Of a DNA stretch of 64,000 nucleotides, positions 40,460 through 62,887 are shown piece by piece. The stretch is from the sequence record MK977694.1; one strand, written 5' to 3'. The DNA is from Escherichia phage vB_EcoM-Sa45lw. Made by a program: the position numbers and the translations under genes. Below the pieces are notes generated by a model. It was given only the letters and a program-made list of their open reading frames with translations, searched no databases and had not been told where the DNA came from. The number at the start of each line of letters is the position of its first letter. Position 1 is the first letter of the stretch.

Positions 40460-40930
40460 TTAATCATGTTTCCACACCCCATCGGTATTTGACCAAAGTC
40501 GCTGATTATCTGATCCTCGCCACAGCTTTTTGGTCGGAAGATTTTTCTCATACTTCCCATCAATAATAACATCAACATATTTAAGCATTTCTAGTTGTTT
40601 AATATCTTCAAACTTATATCCTGTCCACAACCAAATGCTTTTATTGGGATAAAGATTTTTAATAGTTTGAACCACAGAGTGAATCATGTCTCTGTTATCA
40701 GGATAAAGAGGGTCACCCCCAGTTATAGTTAATCCTTCTATATAATCATTATTCAAACATTCAATTAATTGCTCTAGTGTCTCTCCAGTGAATGGAATAC
40801 CATTTCTAGCATTCCATGTTGATTTATTATAACACCCTTCGCATTTATGCAAACAACCTGTAACGAAAAGAACGACCCTGCAACCAGGGCCATTCACAAA
40901 ATCGCAAGGATAAAATCTATCATAATTCAT
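40460..40930 (-). CDS. nrdG: anaerobic RNR activating protein NrdG (radical SAM)
   Basis: 156-aa ORF; CLHKCEGCYN Fe-S motif. Confidence 0.9.
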   Translation of the reverse strand: MNYDRFYPCDFVNGPGCRVVLFVTGCLHKCEGCYNKSTWNARNGIPFTGETLEQLIECLNNDYIEGLTITGGDPLYPDNRDMIHSVVQTIKNLYPNKSIWLWTGYKFEDIKQLEMLKYVDVIIDGKYEKNLPTKKLWRGSDNQRLWSNTDGVWKHD

Positions 40931-42744
40931 TGGTGTTTAACCCTATGCATGATTTCTTTATTTTTACCGAGATTAAATCCACGTTCGTTCGGATTTCCCA
41001 AATAACCACATGTTCTTCTTATTGTGTTCATCTTTTTAGGATCAGTTTCTCCACAGATAGAACAAACAAATCCGTTTTCAGTAGGAGTCATTTCATGGGT
41101 ACTTCCGCATGTAAAACATTTATCTACCGGCATATTAACACCAAAATAATCTAAATGTTGTGCAGCATAATCCCAGACAGCCTCAAGACCCTTTAAATTG
41201 TTTTTCATATCTGGAAGTTCAACATAAGAAATGTGACCGCCTGTCGCAATGAAATGATACGGCGCTTCGCGAGAAATCTTTTCAAACGGAGTAATATTTT
41301 CTTCTACTGAAACATGGAAACTGTTAGTGTACCAGCCTTTATCGGTAACATCCTTTACACTTCCATATTTTTCGGTATCGAGTTTACAGAAGCGATAACA
41401 AAGGTTTTCAGCAGGAGTCGAATATAAACTAAAAGCAAATCCGGTTCTTTCAGTCCACTGCTTAAGACGAGCATTCATTTTAGTTAAAATTTCTTGTCCA
41501 ATATCACGACCGACAAGAATATTCAATTCATGAATACCAATGTATCCTAAAGACACTGAACTTCTGCCGTTTTTAAATAACTCAATTATATCGTCATCAG
41601 GTTTAAGACGAACCCCGAATGCACCTTCTTGGTAAAGAATAGGAGCAACAGTCGCTTTAACTCCTTTTAAGGAACTAATTCTACACATCAAAGCTTCAAA
41701 ACATAAATCCATTCGCTCATTGAACAATTCGATAAATTTCTGTTCATTGAACTGTGTTCCAATATAAGAATCTAATGCGATACGAGGAAGATTCAGTGTT
41801 ACAACACCAAGATTATTACGGCCGTCAAGAATTTCATTACCGGTTGAATCTTTCCACACGCTCAAGAAACTACGACAACCCATTGGAGAAACAGGAATAG
41901 ATGAGCCAGTGATAGCTTTATTGTTCTTAGCTGAAATAATATCAGGATACATTCTTTTGCTTGCGCACTCTAGAGCAAGCTGTTTAATATCATAGTTCGG
42001 GTCGTCTTTATAAAGATTAACACCTTCTTCAACGAACATAACAAGCTTAGGGAAAATAGGAGTTATCCCATCACGACCGAGACCTTTAATACGATTTTTC
42101 AGAATTGCTTTCTGAATCATTCGTTCAGTCCAGTCAGTTCCCGTACCAAATGTAATTGTTACAAAAGGAGTCTGTCCGTTTGAACTAAAGAGAGTATTTA
42201 CTTCATATTCATAAGCTTGGAATGCATCGTATACGTCTTTTTCTGTTTTAGATTGAGCATAATTCAACGCATCAGCGATTTGCCATTTTTCTGCATCTTC
42301 AATATGTTTTGCATAGGTGCGTTTAACATAAGGAGAAAGTACTTTATCTACATTAGCAAAAGTCGTTCCGCCGTATTGATGGGAAGCAACCTGTGCAGTA
42401 ATTTGTGCCATAATTGCAGTAGCAACACCGATTGATTTAGGAGTTTCAATCTGCGCATTACCTAGCTTAAATCCGTTCTCAAGCATTCCTTTTAAATCTA
42501 CTAAACAACAATTAGTAAATGGAAGAGCAGGGGAATAATCAATATCATGGAAATGAATAATTCCGCTTTCATGCGCTTTCATAATAAAAGACGGGACCAT
42601 ATTTTTGGCAATGTGCTTAGACACAATACCAGCCATAAGGTCCCGTTGAGTTGGAAAAACACGAGAATCTTTATTAGCATTCTCGTTTAAAAGGTCTTTA
42701 TTAGTTTTATGAATCAATCCTTCAATTTCTTTTTCAATTGTCAT
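40927..42744 (-). CDS. nrdD: anaerobic ribonucleotide reductase NrdD, intronless
   Basis: 605-aa uninterrupted ORF; C-terminal glycyl-radical motif RRTCGYLG. Confidence 0.93.
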   Translation of the reverse strand: MTIEKEIEGLIHKTNKDLLNENANKDSRVFPTQRDLMAGIVSKHIAKNMVPSFIMKAHESGIIHFHDIDYSPALPFTNCCLVDLKGMLENGFKLGNAQIETPKSIGVATAIMAQITAQVASHQYGGTTFANVDKVLSPYVKRTYAKHIEDAEKWQIADALNYAQSKTEKDVYDAFQAYEYEVNTLFSSNGQTPFVTITFGTGTDWTERMIQKAILKNRIKGLGRDGITPIFPKLVMFVEEGVNLYKDDPNYDIKQLALECASKRMYPDIISAKNNKAITGSSIPVSPMGCRSFLSVWKDSTGNEILDGRNNLGVVTLNLPRIALDSYIGTQFNEQKFIELFNERMDLCFEALMCRISSLKGVKATVAPILYQEGAFGVRLKPDDDIIELFKNGRSSVSLGYIGIHELNILVGRDIGQEILTKMNARLKQWTERTGFAFSLYSTPAENLCYRFCKLDTEKYGSVKDVTDKGWYTNSFHVSVEENITPFEKISREAPYHFIATGGHISYVELPDMKNNLKGLEAVWDYAAQHLDYFGVNMPVDKCFTCGSTHEMTPTENGFVCSICGETDPKKMNTIRRTCGYLGNPNERGFNLGKNKEIMHRVKHQ

Positions 42745-58783: not shown

Positions 58784-59321
58784 TTACTATTTCCAAAAGT
58801 TTATTATTTTTAAGGTAATTAGCCTTTTCTAGGACTTCAGAAGCATATTTAGAACCTGCTTTAACATTCCATCCCGAATTATAAGAGGATATTGCTTTTC
58901 TTATATCGCCCTTATGTATATTTAACCAATAAGAAAGTTCAATGTACGCCCAGGAAGCTGAATTGGACCGTTTATTCAACATTCTTTTTATTTCAGCATC
59001 GGTCATATTATAACCAAGTTCCTTAACTCTTGCTCGCATAGTAGGCAAATAATTTTGGAACATTCCGTAGGCGTGATGCTTTGGTTTAGATTTTAAATTA
59101 ACTCCGCCAGAGCTTTCTTGCCATAAAATAGCAGCCATTATATGACCTAATCCACTCTTGTGAATGTTTTTGTGTGTTTTATATTTTCCATCCTTAGAAA
59201 ATTGTTCCCCGAATTGATACGCGTAACGCATGTTATCGAGTTGGACATTACTGAAAGTATGCTCGGAGCTATGTGCCATCATTGAAATGGCCAATAGACC
59301 AGCGAGTAGTGCTTTTCTCAT
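58776..59321 (-). CDS. lytic-transglycosylase-like periplasmic protein (vs.1-position)
   Basis: 181-aa ORF; signal peptide; catalytic-type LWQESSG motif. Confidence 0.6.
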   Translation of the reverse strand: MRKALLAGLLAISMMAHSSEHTFSNVQLDNMRYAYQFGEQFSKDGKYKTHKNIHKSGLGHIMAAILWQESSGGVNLKSKPKHHAYGMFQNYLPTMRARVKELGYNMTDAEIKRMLNKRSNSASWAYIELSYWLNIHKGDIRKAISSYNSGWNVKAGSKYASEVLEKANYLKNNKLLEIVND

Positions 59322-59328
59322 GCTTACC

Positions 59329-59790
59329 TCATTGAGTTTTAATTACTGCTTTAGAAGCCTTTCCTGGTAAACGACGACTGTTGATAATTGCCATTCTACA
59401 TTGAAGTGACGGGTCTTTGAACTTCGCATTAGGTTTACAAACCGTAAATCCAAGCCAAAGATTTCCATCTGTAATTTCCAAACGCCCAGGACGATATTCA
59501 ACCCCATCAATAAAATCCTCGTCAATGTCAGGACGCGGAGGCATACTCAGGAATTCATTAACTTCTAAAACATGGTCTTTTATTTTGTGGAATAATTCAA
59601 AAACATATGTCTCATCAATCTCCCGTTGAATTGCACGATCAAGAAGATGTTGAGAATATTTTAGATGAAACGATGAGACTCCTGCTGCTTTTGATGCCTC
59701 ACGAATCTCATTGTTAATTTGACGAAACTCCGACTCAAAATGACGACGAAGCTTATTTCGACGGATAAAAACTTCTGTATTGATAGTCAT
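59329..59790 (-). CDS. regB: endoribonuclease RegB
   Basis: 153-aa ORF, T4 RegB length and position. Confidence 0.82.
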   Translation of the reverse strand: MTINTEVFIRRNKLRRHFESEFRQINNEIREASKAAGVSSFHLKYSQHLLDRAIQREIDETYVFELFHKIKDHVLEVNEFLSMPPRPDIDEDFIDGVEYRPGRLEITDGNLWLGFTVCKPNAKFKDPSLQCRMAIINSRRLPGKASKAVIKTQ

Positions 59791-59817
59791 GTTGTTCTCC
59801 TCTTAACTGATAGAAAA

Positions 59818-59847
59818 ATTATACCACAGTCAAGAGGAAAAGTAAAC
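59818..59847 (-). promoter_or_regulatory. T4-type early promoter
   Basis: GTTTAC, 18 bp, TATAAT. Confidence 0.65.
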
Positions 59848-59849
59848 AG

Positions 59850-60128
59850 TTATTCTTTAAATCTAATCAATTTATTCATAGACTTTGAAACTTCTGCACG
59901 AACCTCATGTAGATTTTTGAGCTGTTCAAGACGCTGCGTATAGTAAGCAATTTCATCTTCTTCGAGACAGTCCTGTGAATCTTCTTTAAGATAACGCGCA
60001 TAATCCTGGAAAGCTTTACGGACTACTTCCTGGAAGTCATCAAGACTTTGAATTTTCTTAGGAGCGGCAGATACACGACGAGGTGCAGTATAATACTCAT
60101 AACCAAACCCTGCGCTTAATTGAGCCAT
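59850..60128 (-). CDS. hypothetical protein (vs.3-position)
   Basis: 92 aa from ATG at 60128. Confidence 0.5.
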
Positions 60129-60430
60129 TAGTATTTTTCCTCTGGTTGGAACACTGCGCGACAAGCCCACATACTAGCTTCTTTGAGTTTCGTTTTAGCA
60201 ATAGTTAACTGATCGAGGCTTTCAGCATAATTCTTCGCGAGTTCATCATCTTCACAGCTATCGAATGCTTCCCAGAATTCATCGTATAAAGCATCAAAGA
60301 TAAGTCCTAAACGAACTTCAGCGTCTTTGATAGCATTCACTTTACCGATTTTCTCTTCAGTATGCGGCTTATAACCTTTAATGTCTTCAATCATATTTGA
60401 CTTCCTCACCAGTACATAAATCATATTCAA
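60128..60430 (-). CDS. hypothetical protein (vs.4-position; possible Acb2-like nucleotide sponge)
   Basis: 100-aa ORF at the position where T4 encodes vs.4; assignment positional only. Confidence 0.45.
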
Positions 60431-60608
60431 CTAAACGAATAGGTTCATGAATGCCATATCCTTGAACAGAAATTTCTGTCGTAGGATAAATTCCATCAAT
60501 ATCACCCATATTCCAGGCTTCATTAAATTGCTGTTCGCCTGAATTACTAAACCACTCGGCGAAAGCATTTAGCACATCTTTAGAACCTTCAATAATTATC
60601 TTTGCCAT
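60387..60608 (-). CDS. hypothetical protein
   Basis: 73-aa ORF. Confidence 0.5.
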   Translation of the reverse strand: MAKIIIEGSKDVLNAFAEWFSNSGEQQFNEAWNMGDIDGIYPTTEISVQGYGIHEPIRLVEYDLCTGEEVKYD

Positions 60609-60970
60609 TACAAACTCTCAGTAAAGGTACGAGCGATAACGTCGCGCTGCTGTTCCGGAGTCAGAGAGTTAAAGCGAACTGCATATCCGGATACACGGAT
60701 GGTCAGCTGCGGATATTTTTCCGGATGCTTAACTGCATCTTCCAGAGTTTCGCGACGCAGAACGTTAACGTTCAGGTGTTGACCACCTTCAATTTTAACT
60801 GTAGGCTGTGGCTCAATTTCAATTTCACGGGCATGCAAACCATAGAAAATTTCTGGGTCTACAAAAGAGTCCTCTTTAAAGGTTTTAGAAACGATAATTC
60901 GTGCTTGAATACCATCTTCAAAATAAATAGTACCTTTATGTGTGCCTTCAAGAATTTGATATGCTTTCAT
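60608..60970 (-). CDS. GrcA/YfiD-like autonomous glycyl radical cofactor
   Basis: 120-aa ORF; C-terminal half matches the E. coli GrcA/PflB glycyl-radical domain incl. [13 protein letters not shown]. Confidence 0.8.
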
Positions 60971-60977
60971 ATAAACC

Positions 60978-61307
60978 TCAATTAGAAAATAAATTTATCC
61001 AAGATTGTTCTTTAATTAAAAACGGCTCAGAATCATATGCCATTAAACTTTGGGTAATTAATCCTTTAAAAGGTCCATCAATAAATTCCATGGTAAAATA
61101 TGGAATTTTATTCATTAACTGCGCGTTAGGAGCAGTGCACAAAACTCTGCATCCTTTGAATACGCCTTTTTGTAATTTGTATTGCTTGGGATAAAATTCG
61201 CTCAAAATGTTATTATTTGCCAAAATTTCAAAATGATTCACCAATTTATTTTTAATAGTTTTTGGCGAAAAATAAAGATATTCGAAAAGCTGTGTGTCTG
61301 TCATCAT
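60978..61307 (-). CDS. hypothetical protein
   Basis: 109-aa ORF. Confidence 0.5.
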
Positions 61308-61846
61308 TGCATTCCAATCACAAAAAATTGAGGACGAACTGTTTCACCTGTTTCAGCATTATAGCTTCGACAACAGTGTTGTACCGTTTTAATATGGATA
61401 TTGTAAATCTTATCCATATCAGGAGCTTTAATAGGTTCGTCAATTATGTACAAGATACGAGAAAGCGATAACCCACGGAATTTATGACCTTCATTACCGA
61501 TAAAACTACGGACAGAATCAGTAAATAAACGGAATCGAATATCATCATTAGAATAACGCGAAAATTCCTTTTTAATGTTATTTGCAGAAATTTTAGCGTA
61601 AGCTGAAGTATTAGAAAGAACAATAACTGTTCCGCCATCATACAGCCAATTAGCAGCAAAGTTAGTCACAGCAATTGATTTACCGGATTGACGTCCACCA
61701 TCTATACGAAGTGTGCAGTACTGTTTGAGCACATCTTCCATTGGTGGAAGATAATCATTCTTACAAATTTCTTCTACTCTAGCATCAGAATGGTGTGTAA
61801 AAGCATTCATCAGGGATAGATAAGGACCAGTTAAAAATGTTCTCAT
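61304..61846 (-). CDS. hypothetical P-loop-containing protein
   Basis: 180 aa from ATG at 61846; GGRQSGKS; track N-terminal extension runs into a GC-rich island. Confidence 0.5.
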   Translation of the reverse strand: MRTFLTGPYLSLMNAFTHHSDARVEEICKNDYLPPMEDVLKQYCTLRIDGGRQSGKSIAVTNFAANWLYDGGTVIVLSNTSAYAKISANNIKKEFSRYSNDDIRFRLFTDSVRSFIGNEGHKFRGLSLSRILYIIDEPIKAPDMDKIYNIHIKTVQHCCRSYNAETGETVRPQFFVIGMQ

Positions 61847-61987
61847 TTTATTCTCTCTAAGTTTGGGCCATTCCGTGGCGCATGAATTGTCCATTTCTGT
61901 ATTTACCCATTACCGCACTTGGGCTCGACCTTATCACAGGTTGGCGGGAATCCCTCACAGAATCATGAGGTCCAGGTTGTTCCCATA

Positions 61988-62461
61988 TTATTTGAACGAT
62001 TTAACGTACTGAATAGAACCCTTACTATTCACAAAGGCAATTTTACCATTTTTATTATACATGGTAGCAGTACGCTGATAACCATAGGTTTGTTTACCAG
62101 ATTGATAACCAACTAATGCAAAATTATCTTCACCCATTTTATTCTGTTTAGCGCGAATGCGTTCATGACCATGTGCCATAAGAACCTTAGCATCACCAGT
62201 TGCAATGGATCGACGAGTTTTTTCATCTTCAACTGCATTAACAAAGTCGTCAAATGAATCAAATTTAGCATGAGATTTATTATACAATTTTCCATCTACT
62301 GCATAATTATATCCCTGTACATCCATTTCAACTTCTGTACCATCATCCAATACAGCAGTAATTTTTTGACCTTTTTTAAATTTCAAAAGATCAGTAAAAG
62401 ATTCAGCAATAATTTGAGAATTAATAGCTGCTTCAGTGATAAATTCTTGATATGTTTTCAT
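61988..62461 (-). CDS. hypothetical protein
   Basis: 157-aa ORF upstream of denV. Confidence 0.5.
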   Translation of the reverse strand: MKTYQEFITEAAINSQIIAESFTDLLKFKKGQKITAVLDDGTEVEMDVQGYNYAVDGKLYNKSHAKFDSFDDFVNAVEDEKTRRSIATGDAKVLMAHGHERIRAKQNKMGEDNFALVGYQSGKQTYGYQRTATMYNKNGKIAFVNSKGSIQYVKSFK

Positions 62462-62470
62462 GGGTTTCCT

Positions 62471-62887
62471 TTAAATGTAAATATTTTTACCGTAATACTT
62501 ATACCAATGTGGTTTCATTAAAATTTTTTCATCAAGTCGTTGTTGACTCAATTTAATAGCTGATTTGCATGGATTATAATCATTTTTCCATTCTATTGGA
62601 ATATCGCTGATGTCAGGAACTTCAGTATCTTTTATACTGAACCCGCGTTTTAAGCATTCCGTTATAATGTCTAATTGACGCTTTCGCAAAAATTCTAACT
62701 TATCGTAAAAGAACGTAACATGACCAGAACCTAAAATAAACTCGGAAGATATTTTAAAATCTTTAACGCGCTTACCGTTTGCCACATGCTTACGAACTAT
62801 ACCAAAAACACGCGGCAATTCACGGTATTCTGCGATTAAATGTTGATCAGCAAGTTCAGATACTAAAGTCAAATTAATACGAGTCAT
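62471..62887 (-). CDS. denV: endonuclease V (pyrimidine dimer glycosylase)
   Basis: 138-aa ORF; N-terminal [17 protein letters not shown] matches T4 DenV. Confidence 0.92.

Follow-up and report, generated by a model that had tools for sequence, protein, structure and literature searches.

Why should a T4-type phage carry a small gene of which one half reads almost base for base like a chromosomal gene of its host, while the other half does not? The question is raised by vs.6 (product Y06I) in Escherichia phage vB_EcoM-Sa45lw, of which a stretch of 64,000 nucleotides (record MK977694.1; hereafter the window) was analysed. The gene itself, its homology and the biochemical activity of its T4 version are already known and routinely annotated; what the locus adds is a modestly interesting evolutionary footnote, namely host-matched replacement in two phage lineages. 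The best explanation of the data as a whole, which we regard as very likely to be correct, is that vs.6 encodes a stand-alone relative of the E. coli protein GrcA (YfiD), that it acts as a spare part for pyruvate formate-lyase (PFL), and that its radical-domain half has been overwritten from the host.

Position of vs.6 and its neighbourhood

In the ORF list of the window, vs.6 occupies positions 60608..60970 on the minus strand and encodes 120 amino acids from an ATG start. Codons 1-60 (60791..60970, minus strand) form a phage-type N-terminal half, as judged from composition, identity to grcA and comparison among genera, and are followed by codons 61-117 (60620..60790, minus strand), a putatively host-derived tract recognised by a match over 170 of 171 nucleotides, which encodes the glycyl-radical domain (EGGQHLNV...ARTFT). 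Within this tract, the GGA codon of Gly95, the glycyl-radical site predicted from alignments to GrcA and PflB, lies at 60686..60688 (minus strand). The last three codons (GAG AGT TTG) and the TAA stop (60608..60619, minus strand) are again phage-type: the three codons differ from grcA at 3 of 9 bases, and their variants differ between T4, RB51 and Mosigvirus. Five nucleotides upstream of the ATG, a GAGG ribosome-binding site read from the sequence (60976..60979, minus strand) overlaps the TGA stop of vs.7, which indicates closely packed genes in one minus-strand operon; at the other end, the TAA stop and the start codon of vs.5 (60387..60608, minus strand, from the ORF list) have one base in common (TAATG). 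Bounded by vs.7 and vs.5 and provided with its own ribosome-binding site, the product is a small stand-alone protein, of a kind that measures about 120-130 amino acids, rather than the C-terminal end of some large glycyl radical enzyme. A scan of positions 59300-62600 with promoter and terminator consensus sequences gave counts no higher than the shuffled expectation.

The window is that of a Tequatrovirus: over the 3.6-kb stretch around vs.6, identity reaches 99.5% with Shigella phage Sf23, 99.3% with wV7 and 97% with RB51. The genes of RB51 and T4 stand in the order denV, (Ip4 or ipII), vs.8, vs.7, vs.6, vs.5, vs.4, vs.3, regB, and vs.6 bears the annotation "autonomous glycyl radical cofactor GrcA" in RB51, T4, Sf23 and wV7; the first-pass annotation, made from the letters alone, had rightly supposed that a homologue in the T4 regB-denV interval might already be annotated.

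Some neighbouring genes deserve a remark of their own. Between vs.8 and denV, positions 61988-62461 (minus strand) encode an internal virion protein of the Ip4 type; RB51 and wV7 have the same arrangement, whereas T4 has ipII beyond denV and no Ip4 at this place. Variable slots of this sort, occupied by internal proteins, are typical of T-even phages. The product of vs.8 (61304-61894, minus strand, 196 amino acids), annotated as hypothetical only, contains a Walker-A-like GGRQSGKS motif and shows a weak match (phrog_2, E=6.6e-5) to terminase large subunits in their ATPase region. As for vs.4 and vs.3, their mechanical ORFs start with TTG (60128-60430, minus strand, 100 amino acids) and GTG (59850-60170, minus strand, 106 amino acids), respectively; because both overlap a neighbour and exceed the genes annotated in RB51 and T4 (282/267 and 279 nt), the true starts are probably internal ATGs.

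Identity of the encoded protein

The ORF, Pfam, NCBIfam, PDB and PHROGs matches and the annotation of relatives all designate vs.6 as a phage autonomous glycyl-radical cofactor homologous to GrcA. A phmmer search of all PDB chains ranks E. coli GrcA first (6owr_A, E=8.6e-42) and second E. coli PflB over residues 697-759 (E=5.2e-26), to which the radical domain of vs.6 is about 80% identical. Residues 61-120 are 100% identical to GrcA/YfiD residues 68-127. The Pfam family Gly_radical (PF01228) is recognised with E=2.8e-18 and 66.8 bits (cutoff 22.2), and the RVSGY glycyl-radical motif is present with PFL-type flanking sequence, Gly95 being aligned as the counterpart of GrcA Gly102 and PflB Gly734. 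The similarity to GrcA is far beyond chance, and the best reading is that vs.6, in a T4-type phage (Tequatrovirus), encodes a protein of the GrcA/YfiD kind that consists of a glycyl-radical domain standing alone. The first-pass annotation had recognised a GrcA/YfiD homologue with an essentially identical C-terminal stretch of about 60 residues and a divergent N-terminal half, and each of these points is borne out, the re-translated protein ending with the very peptide that it had quoted.

The assignment has one nuance. The top NCBIfam model, TIGR04365 ("autonomous glycyl radical cofactor GrcA"), matches residues 20-120 with 3.7e-45 but with 153.3 bits, below its curated equivalog cutoff of 170 bits, because the N-terminal half is divergent, whereas the match to a dedicated phage family of PHROGs, phrog_1209, is full-length (1.2e-62). 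vs.6 would therefore best be filed as a phage branch of the GrcA kind (phrog_1209) and not as a strict equivalog of bacterial GrcA. RefSeq nevertheless calls the phage protein GrcA despite the 153 vs 170 bits, a name that must consequently stem from another rule.

Homologues of vs.6 were found by tblastn in 1,588 phage records, spanning Tequatro-, Mosig-, Jiaoda-, Karam-, Slopek-, Krisch- and Biquartavirus, the T5-like Tequintavirus and the jumbo Eneladusvirus, and the PFL-type radical domain is kept in every phage vs.6/grcA copy. In the T5-like phage HildyBeyeler and the Aeromonas phage Riv-10, the grcA homologue lies directly downstream of or within a tRNA cluster (L011:1-2869, L010:463-2860). 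In addition, several IMG/VR contigs labelled as viral (L168-L178) encode a PflB-type C-terminus (MNREMLLDAMENPEKYPQ...) with a GC that stays at about 0.50 both within the tract and upstream of it; these probably represent host pflB or tdcE, carried on misbinned contigs or on the flanks of prophages, and not phage grcA.

Likely target of the spare part

According to Wagner et al. (2001, pmid 11444864), as relayed by PMC8683613 and PMC13450708, both YfiD from E. coli and Y06I from T4 acquire a glycyl radical from the PFL activase and restore, in vitro, the activity of PFL cleaved by oxygen at Gly734. PMC13450708 is a review of 2026, and these two are still the sole biochemically validated "spare part" proteins for glycyl radical enzymes. 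In E. coli YfiD, residues 1-60 are disordered and residues 61-127 form the structured domain, the N-terminal half helping to bind cleaved PFL and to achieve efficient activation while being dispensable for catalysis (PMC8683613). Codons 1-60 of vs.6 are the counterpart of this disordered stretch.

The window also encodes NrdD (40927..42744, minus strand, 605 amino acids, C-terminal RRTCGYLG) and NrdG (40460..40930, minus strand), both ORFs being found where the first-pass annotation had placed them. The functional link that it proposed on this basis fared less well: it is without sequence support (E=2.6), and the sole hint comes from synteny in other phages. More precisely, phage GrcA could be imagined to serve NrdD, either by standing in for the radical domain of NrdD cut by oxygen or by acting with NrdG, as its substrate or its partner. 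Besides the presence of both genes here, this reading draws on the position of grcA inside the nrdD-nrdG cluster in other phages: the order is nrdD-nrdG-grcA-nrdC-nrdH in the Aeromonas phages PX29 and phiWae14 (L013:2023-2878, L014:2025-2878), where the grcA start overlaps the nrdG stop, and grcA stands between nrdD and nrdG in the Yersinia jumbo phage fHe-Yen9-04 (L008:1-3345). Such synteny suggests a co-expressed "anaerobic module" and possibly an activation of phage GrcA by NrdG. However, vs.6 lies about 18 kb from nrdDG in the window, BLASTP between vs.6 and the NrdD of the window detected no similarity (best E=2.6) and left the RRTCGYLG region unaligned, and vs.6 bears no similarity to the NrdD-type radical domain, with its RxCGY motif preceded by a Zn-ribbon. 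Its radical domain is that of GrcA and close to that of PflB, and even the nrdG-linked Aeromonas copies are still PFL-type (QHLNVNVL...R[VI]SGYA[VI]RF). Since a spare part must copy its target in strand, loop and helix, and vs.6 copies PFL in these elements, a spare-part role towards NrdD is unlikely. It is rejected here on sequence grounds, the synteny elsewhere being retained as a lead only, and service to NrdD in either form is, on balance, very improbable.

A mosaic gene

A codon alignment with E. coli grcA splits vs.6 into two parts of very different nature. Nucleotide identity is 48% over codons 1-59/60 (GC 0.34, GC3 0.20) vs 97% over codons 60/61-120 (GC 0.48, GC3 0.44). The N-terminal half resembles the neighbouring phage genes in GC and GC3, whereas the tract of codons 61-117 has the same GC (0.50) and GC3 (0.44) as its E. 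coli counterpart and stands out from all the neighbours, whose GC3 ranges from 0.17 to 0.36.

Over its 171 nt, the tract is identical to E. coli grcA nt 202-372 at 170 positions, the sole difference being the third base of the radical glycine codon (GGA in the window, GGT in E. coli). The tract of RB51 is identical at 171 of 171 positions to grcA of some E. coli genomes, and one Mosigvirus has the same 171 bases as RB51. By comparison, E. coli grcA differs over the same tract from that of Citrobacter at 14 of 171 positions and from those of Salmonella, Klebsiella and Enterobacter at 24-30, and the similarity of the tract thus appears specific to Escherichia. Such near-identity extends over about 43 synonymous sites, which selection at the protein level cannot produce. 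The tract is found in 496 phage records with 95-99% identity to E. coli grcA, the match beginning at grcA nt 200 in every listed record.

Age and direction of the transfer

The phage-type N-terminal half is conserved in Tequatro-, Mosig-, Jiaoda- and Karamvirus and is also common to Slopekvirus. Between Tequatrovirus and Mosigvirus it shows a dN of 0.07 and a dS of 0.49 (dN/dS of about 0.14), and it is under purifying selection; dS exceeds 0.85 towards Jiaodavirus and Karamvirus, the range across genera going from 0.49 to saturation. The tract behaves quite differently: Tequatrovirus and Mosigvirus differ at 23 of 180 bases in the 5' half vs 2 of 171 in the tract (Fisher p=1.2e-5), which makes the tract much younger than the split between the two genera. 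Few blocks of the locus are as similar, the flanking vs.5 being only 65-70% identical between these genera. The tract was either replaced independently in Tequatrovirus and Mosigvirus, or spread between the two.

These data separate what stands from what does not in the recent host capture proposed by the first-pass annotation: codons 61-117, with 1 of 171 bases different, are in favour of it, whereas codons 1-60, with a GC3 of 0.20 and a dS of 0.49 to >0.85, speak against it. A recent capture of the whole of host grcA, followed by fast divergence of the N-terminal half, would fit the near-identity of the C-terminal half to host DNA as well as the alignment of the protein to the GrcA model over residues 20-120, but it leaves unexplained the abrupt fall in nucleotide identity at codon 61 (from 97% to 48%), the phage composition of the 5' half, and the sharing of that half with Mosig-, Jiaoda-, Karam- and Slopekvirus at synonymous distances reaching saturation, when the 3' tract displays essentially zero synonymous change. 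The contrast at synonymous sites effectively refutes a single recent capture of both halves, an explanation to which we attach next to no credence. The preferred reading is that vs.6 is old in T4-like phages and that only its 3' half was overwritten recently with E. coli grcA, this overwriting of codons 61-117 presumably proceeding by recombination with the chromosomal grcA of E. coli.

Transfer in the reverse direction, from phage to host, is rejected for two reasons. First, the 5' and 3' parts of bacterial grcA diverge in parallel between species (23/201 and 14/171 differences between E. coli and Citrobacter, 31/201 and 30/171 between E. coli and Salmonella), which points to a direction from host to phage. 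Second, the GC of the tract fits the host (0.50 for E. coli, 0.57 in the Klebsiella phages) and not the phage (0.34-0.36).

Klebsiella phages and a probable recurrent replacement

Jiaodaviruses provide a second instance, their tract having a GC of 0.57 vs 0.36 upstream. Tracts were compared with a panel of 161 bacterial grcA alleles and at a diagnostic set of 20 sites by which grcA of E. coli and grcA of K. pneumoniae can be told apart. The tract of the window is E. coli-type at 19 of these sites, K. pneumoniae-type at none and neither at one (the GGA codon), and E. coli phages as a group are E. coli-type at 19-20 of the 20, again with no K. pneumoniae-type site. Two Jiaodaviruses, over tract positions 6-120, are instead K. 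pneumoniae-type at 17 of 17 sites and E. coli-type at 0 of 17. These K. pneumoniae-like tracts (L003:1681-1851, L098:1504-1674 and, from IMG/VR, L125) occupy the same position in vs.6. Those of Shinkou, 15882-5 and an IMG/VR relative differ at 5-7 of 171 positions from metagenome contigs L180-L182 (502-672), on which the GrcA protein is exactly that of K. pneumoniae (GRCA_KLEP7). The Jiaodaviruses switch after about position 131; over the first 131 nt, 15882-5 has 0 differences from K. pneumoniae and the Jiaodaviruses overall 0-1. Furthermore, identity to K. pneumoniae grcA amounts to 95-99% in 77 records of Klebsiella/Raoultella phages.

E. coli phages and Klebsiella phages share their 5' junction: it falls directly before the GAA GGN GGT (EGG) codons, at the point where nucleotide homology between phage and host begins and, in YfiD terms, 7 residues into the structured domain (residues 61-127, as delimited in PMC8683613). 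Host single-stranded fragments may pair with the phage gene over the whole homologous patch, their heterologous ends being trimmed, which would explain how independent events come to share a junction. It is thus rather likely that the radical half has been replaced repeatedly by grcA of the infected host genus, on at least two independent occasions that have the 5' junction in common, and the data point to one from E. coli to Tequatrovirus/Mosigvirus and one from K. pneumoniae to Jiaodavirus. No description of such host-matched grcA replacement was found in the searchable literature, the older T4 literature being outside its reach.

The phenomenon is nonetheless bounded. A rule whereby every phage lineage tracks the grcA of its host was considered and rejected, host-matching being seen only in Tequatro-/Mosigvirus (E. 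coli) and Jiaodavirus (K. pneumoniae). No phage record is at least 95% identical to grcA of Salmonella, of a Klebsiella MAG or of Enterobacter sichuanensis, and for the Karam-, Slopek-, Pseudoteven-, Krisch- and T5-like copies, every one of the 161 alleles of the panel is at least 22 of 171 sites away. In the K. oxytoca phage PKO111 (L004), the tract differs at 18 of 171 positions from K. pneumoniae grcA, and no closer donor occurs among the 161 alleles.

Proposed function

By extension from the T4 protein, which differs by one residue, the host activase PflA would install a radical on Gly95, and the protein would then dock into PflB cut by oxygen at Gly734, take the place of the lost C-terminal radical domain and bring back the conversion of pyruvate to acetyl-CoA and formate; for T4 Y06I, each of these steps is known from the in vitro work as relayed in the later papers. 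As the phage shuts off the expression of host genes, it may have to make a copy for itself, and such a spare part could maintain the supply of fermentative energy and acetyl-CoA during infection in the gut, where oxygen is low and fluctuating. An exact match of the radical domain to the host allele may be neutral or advantageous; it includes two residues that distinguish the E. coli type (LEDAVKH) from the Klebsiella type (LLDAVEH). The N-terminal half, which mediates binding to cleaved PFL in YfiD, has diverged strongly in the phage protein, so that its regulation or the recognition of its target could depart from that of YfiD. To our knowledge, T4 vs.6 is non-essential in laboratory aerobic growth. 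The searchable literature yielded no evidence of an in vivo benefit of vs.6 to the phage.

That the protein would instead be a decoy against the host, soaking up PflA or blocking PFL and thereby redirecting pyruvate metabolism, is scarcely credible: the half that serves PFL-damage recognition in YfiD is indeed phage-specific and under purifying selection (dN/dS of about 0.14), which makes altered behaviour conceivable, but the catalytic half is kept identical to a functional host domain, radical glycine included, and T4 Y06I restores PFL activity in vitro and does not inhibit it (Wagner et al. 2001, as relayed by PMC8683613).

Should the repeated replacement from the host hold, T-even phages would recombine naturally with the host chromosome over less than 200 bp of homology, in spite of their modified DNA and of the degradation of host DNA, and an auxiliary protein of the phage would thereby stay an exact match for PflB and PflA, its partner enzymes in the host. 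Such phages are usually thought to be isolated from host DNA, and the presence of a 171-nt E. coli-like stretch in hundreds of T-even genomes, together with a K. pneumoniae-like one, would constitute direct natural evidence of host-to-phage homologous replacement. In the same line, the gene amounts to a natural experiment in which the phage N-terminal half is kept and the catalytic half swapped, with a bearing on the unexplained role of the YfiD N-terminus.

Comparison with known systems

The closest known system is T4 Y06I (vs.6, NP_049730), the same gene at the same place (vs.7-vs.6-vs.5, in the regB-denV interval). The two proteins are identical at 119 of 120 residues, the sole change being R73H in T4, and the genes show three synonymous base differences in the 5' half; T4 vs.6 carries the same host-identical 3' tract, with 2 of 171 differences from E. 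coli grcA. The neighbourhood in the window has an Ip4-type internal protein gene, like RB51 and wV7, whereas T4 has ipII instead.

E. coli GrcA/YfiD (P68066; 6OWR; TIGR04365) is likewise a stand-alone protein, of about 14 kDa, with an identical C-terminal stretch of 60 residues including the RVSGY loop, and it shares activase and target with T4 Y06I, according to the experiments on the latter as they are relayed. The phage protein is 7 residues shorter, and its N-terminal half has only scattered motifs in common with that of GrcA (ARxIVxK, ED, RE[IV]). In addition, the phage gene belongs to an early/middle operon, whereas E. coli grcA adjoins ung and is under FNR and acid control.

Finally, a parallel is offered by psbA, the gene of the photosystem II D1 protein in T4-like cyanophages, in which segments have been exchanged with the host copy, giving a mosaic with host-like patches. 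Both are auxiliary metabolic genes of T4-like phages with host-like patches within the gene. Unlike those of psbA, however, the patch of vs.6 is a single sharply bounded domain of about 130-171 nt, its 5' junction is the same in the E. coli and the Klebsiella phage lineages, and it is found in phages that have hydroxymethylcytosine DNA and degrade the DNA of their host.
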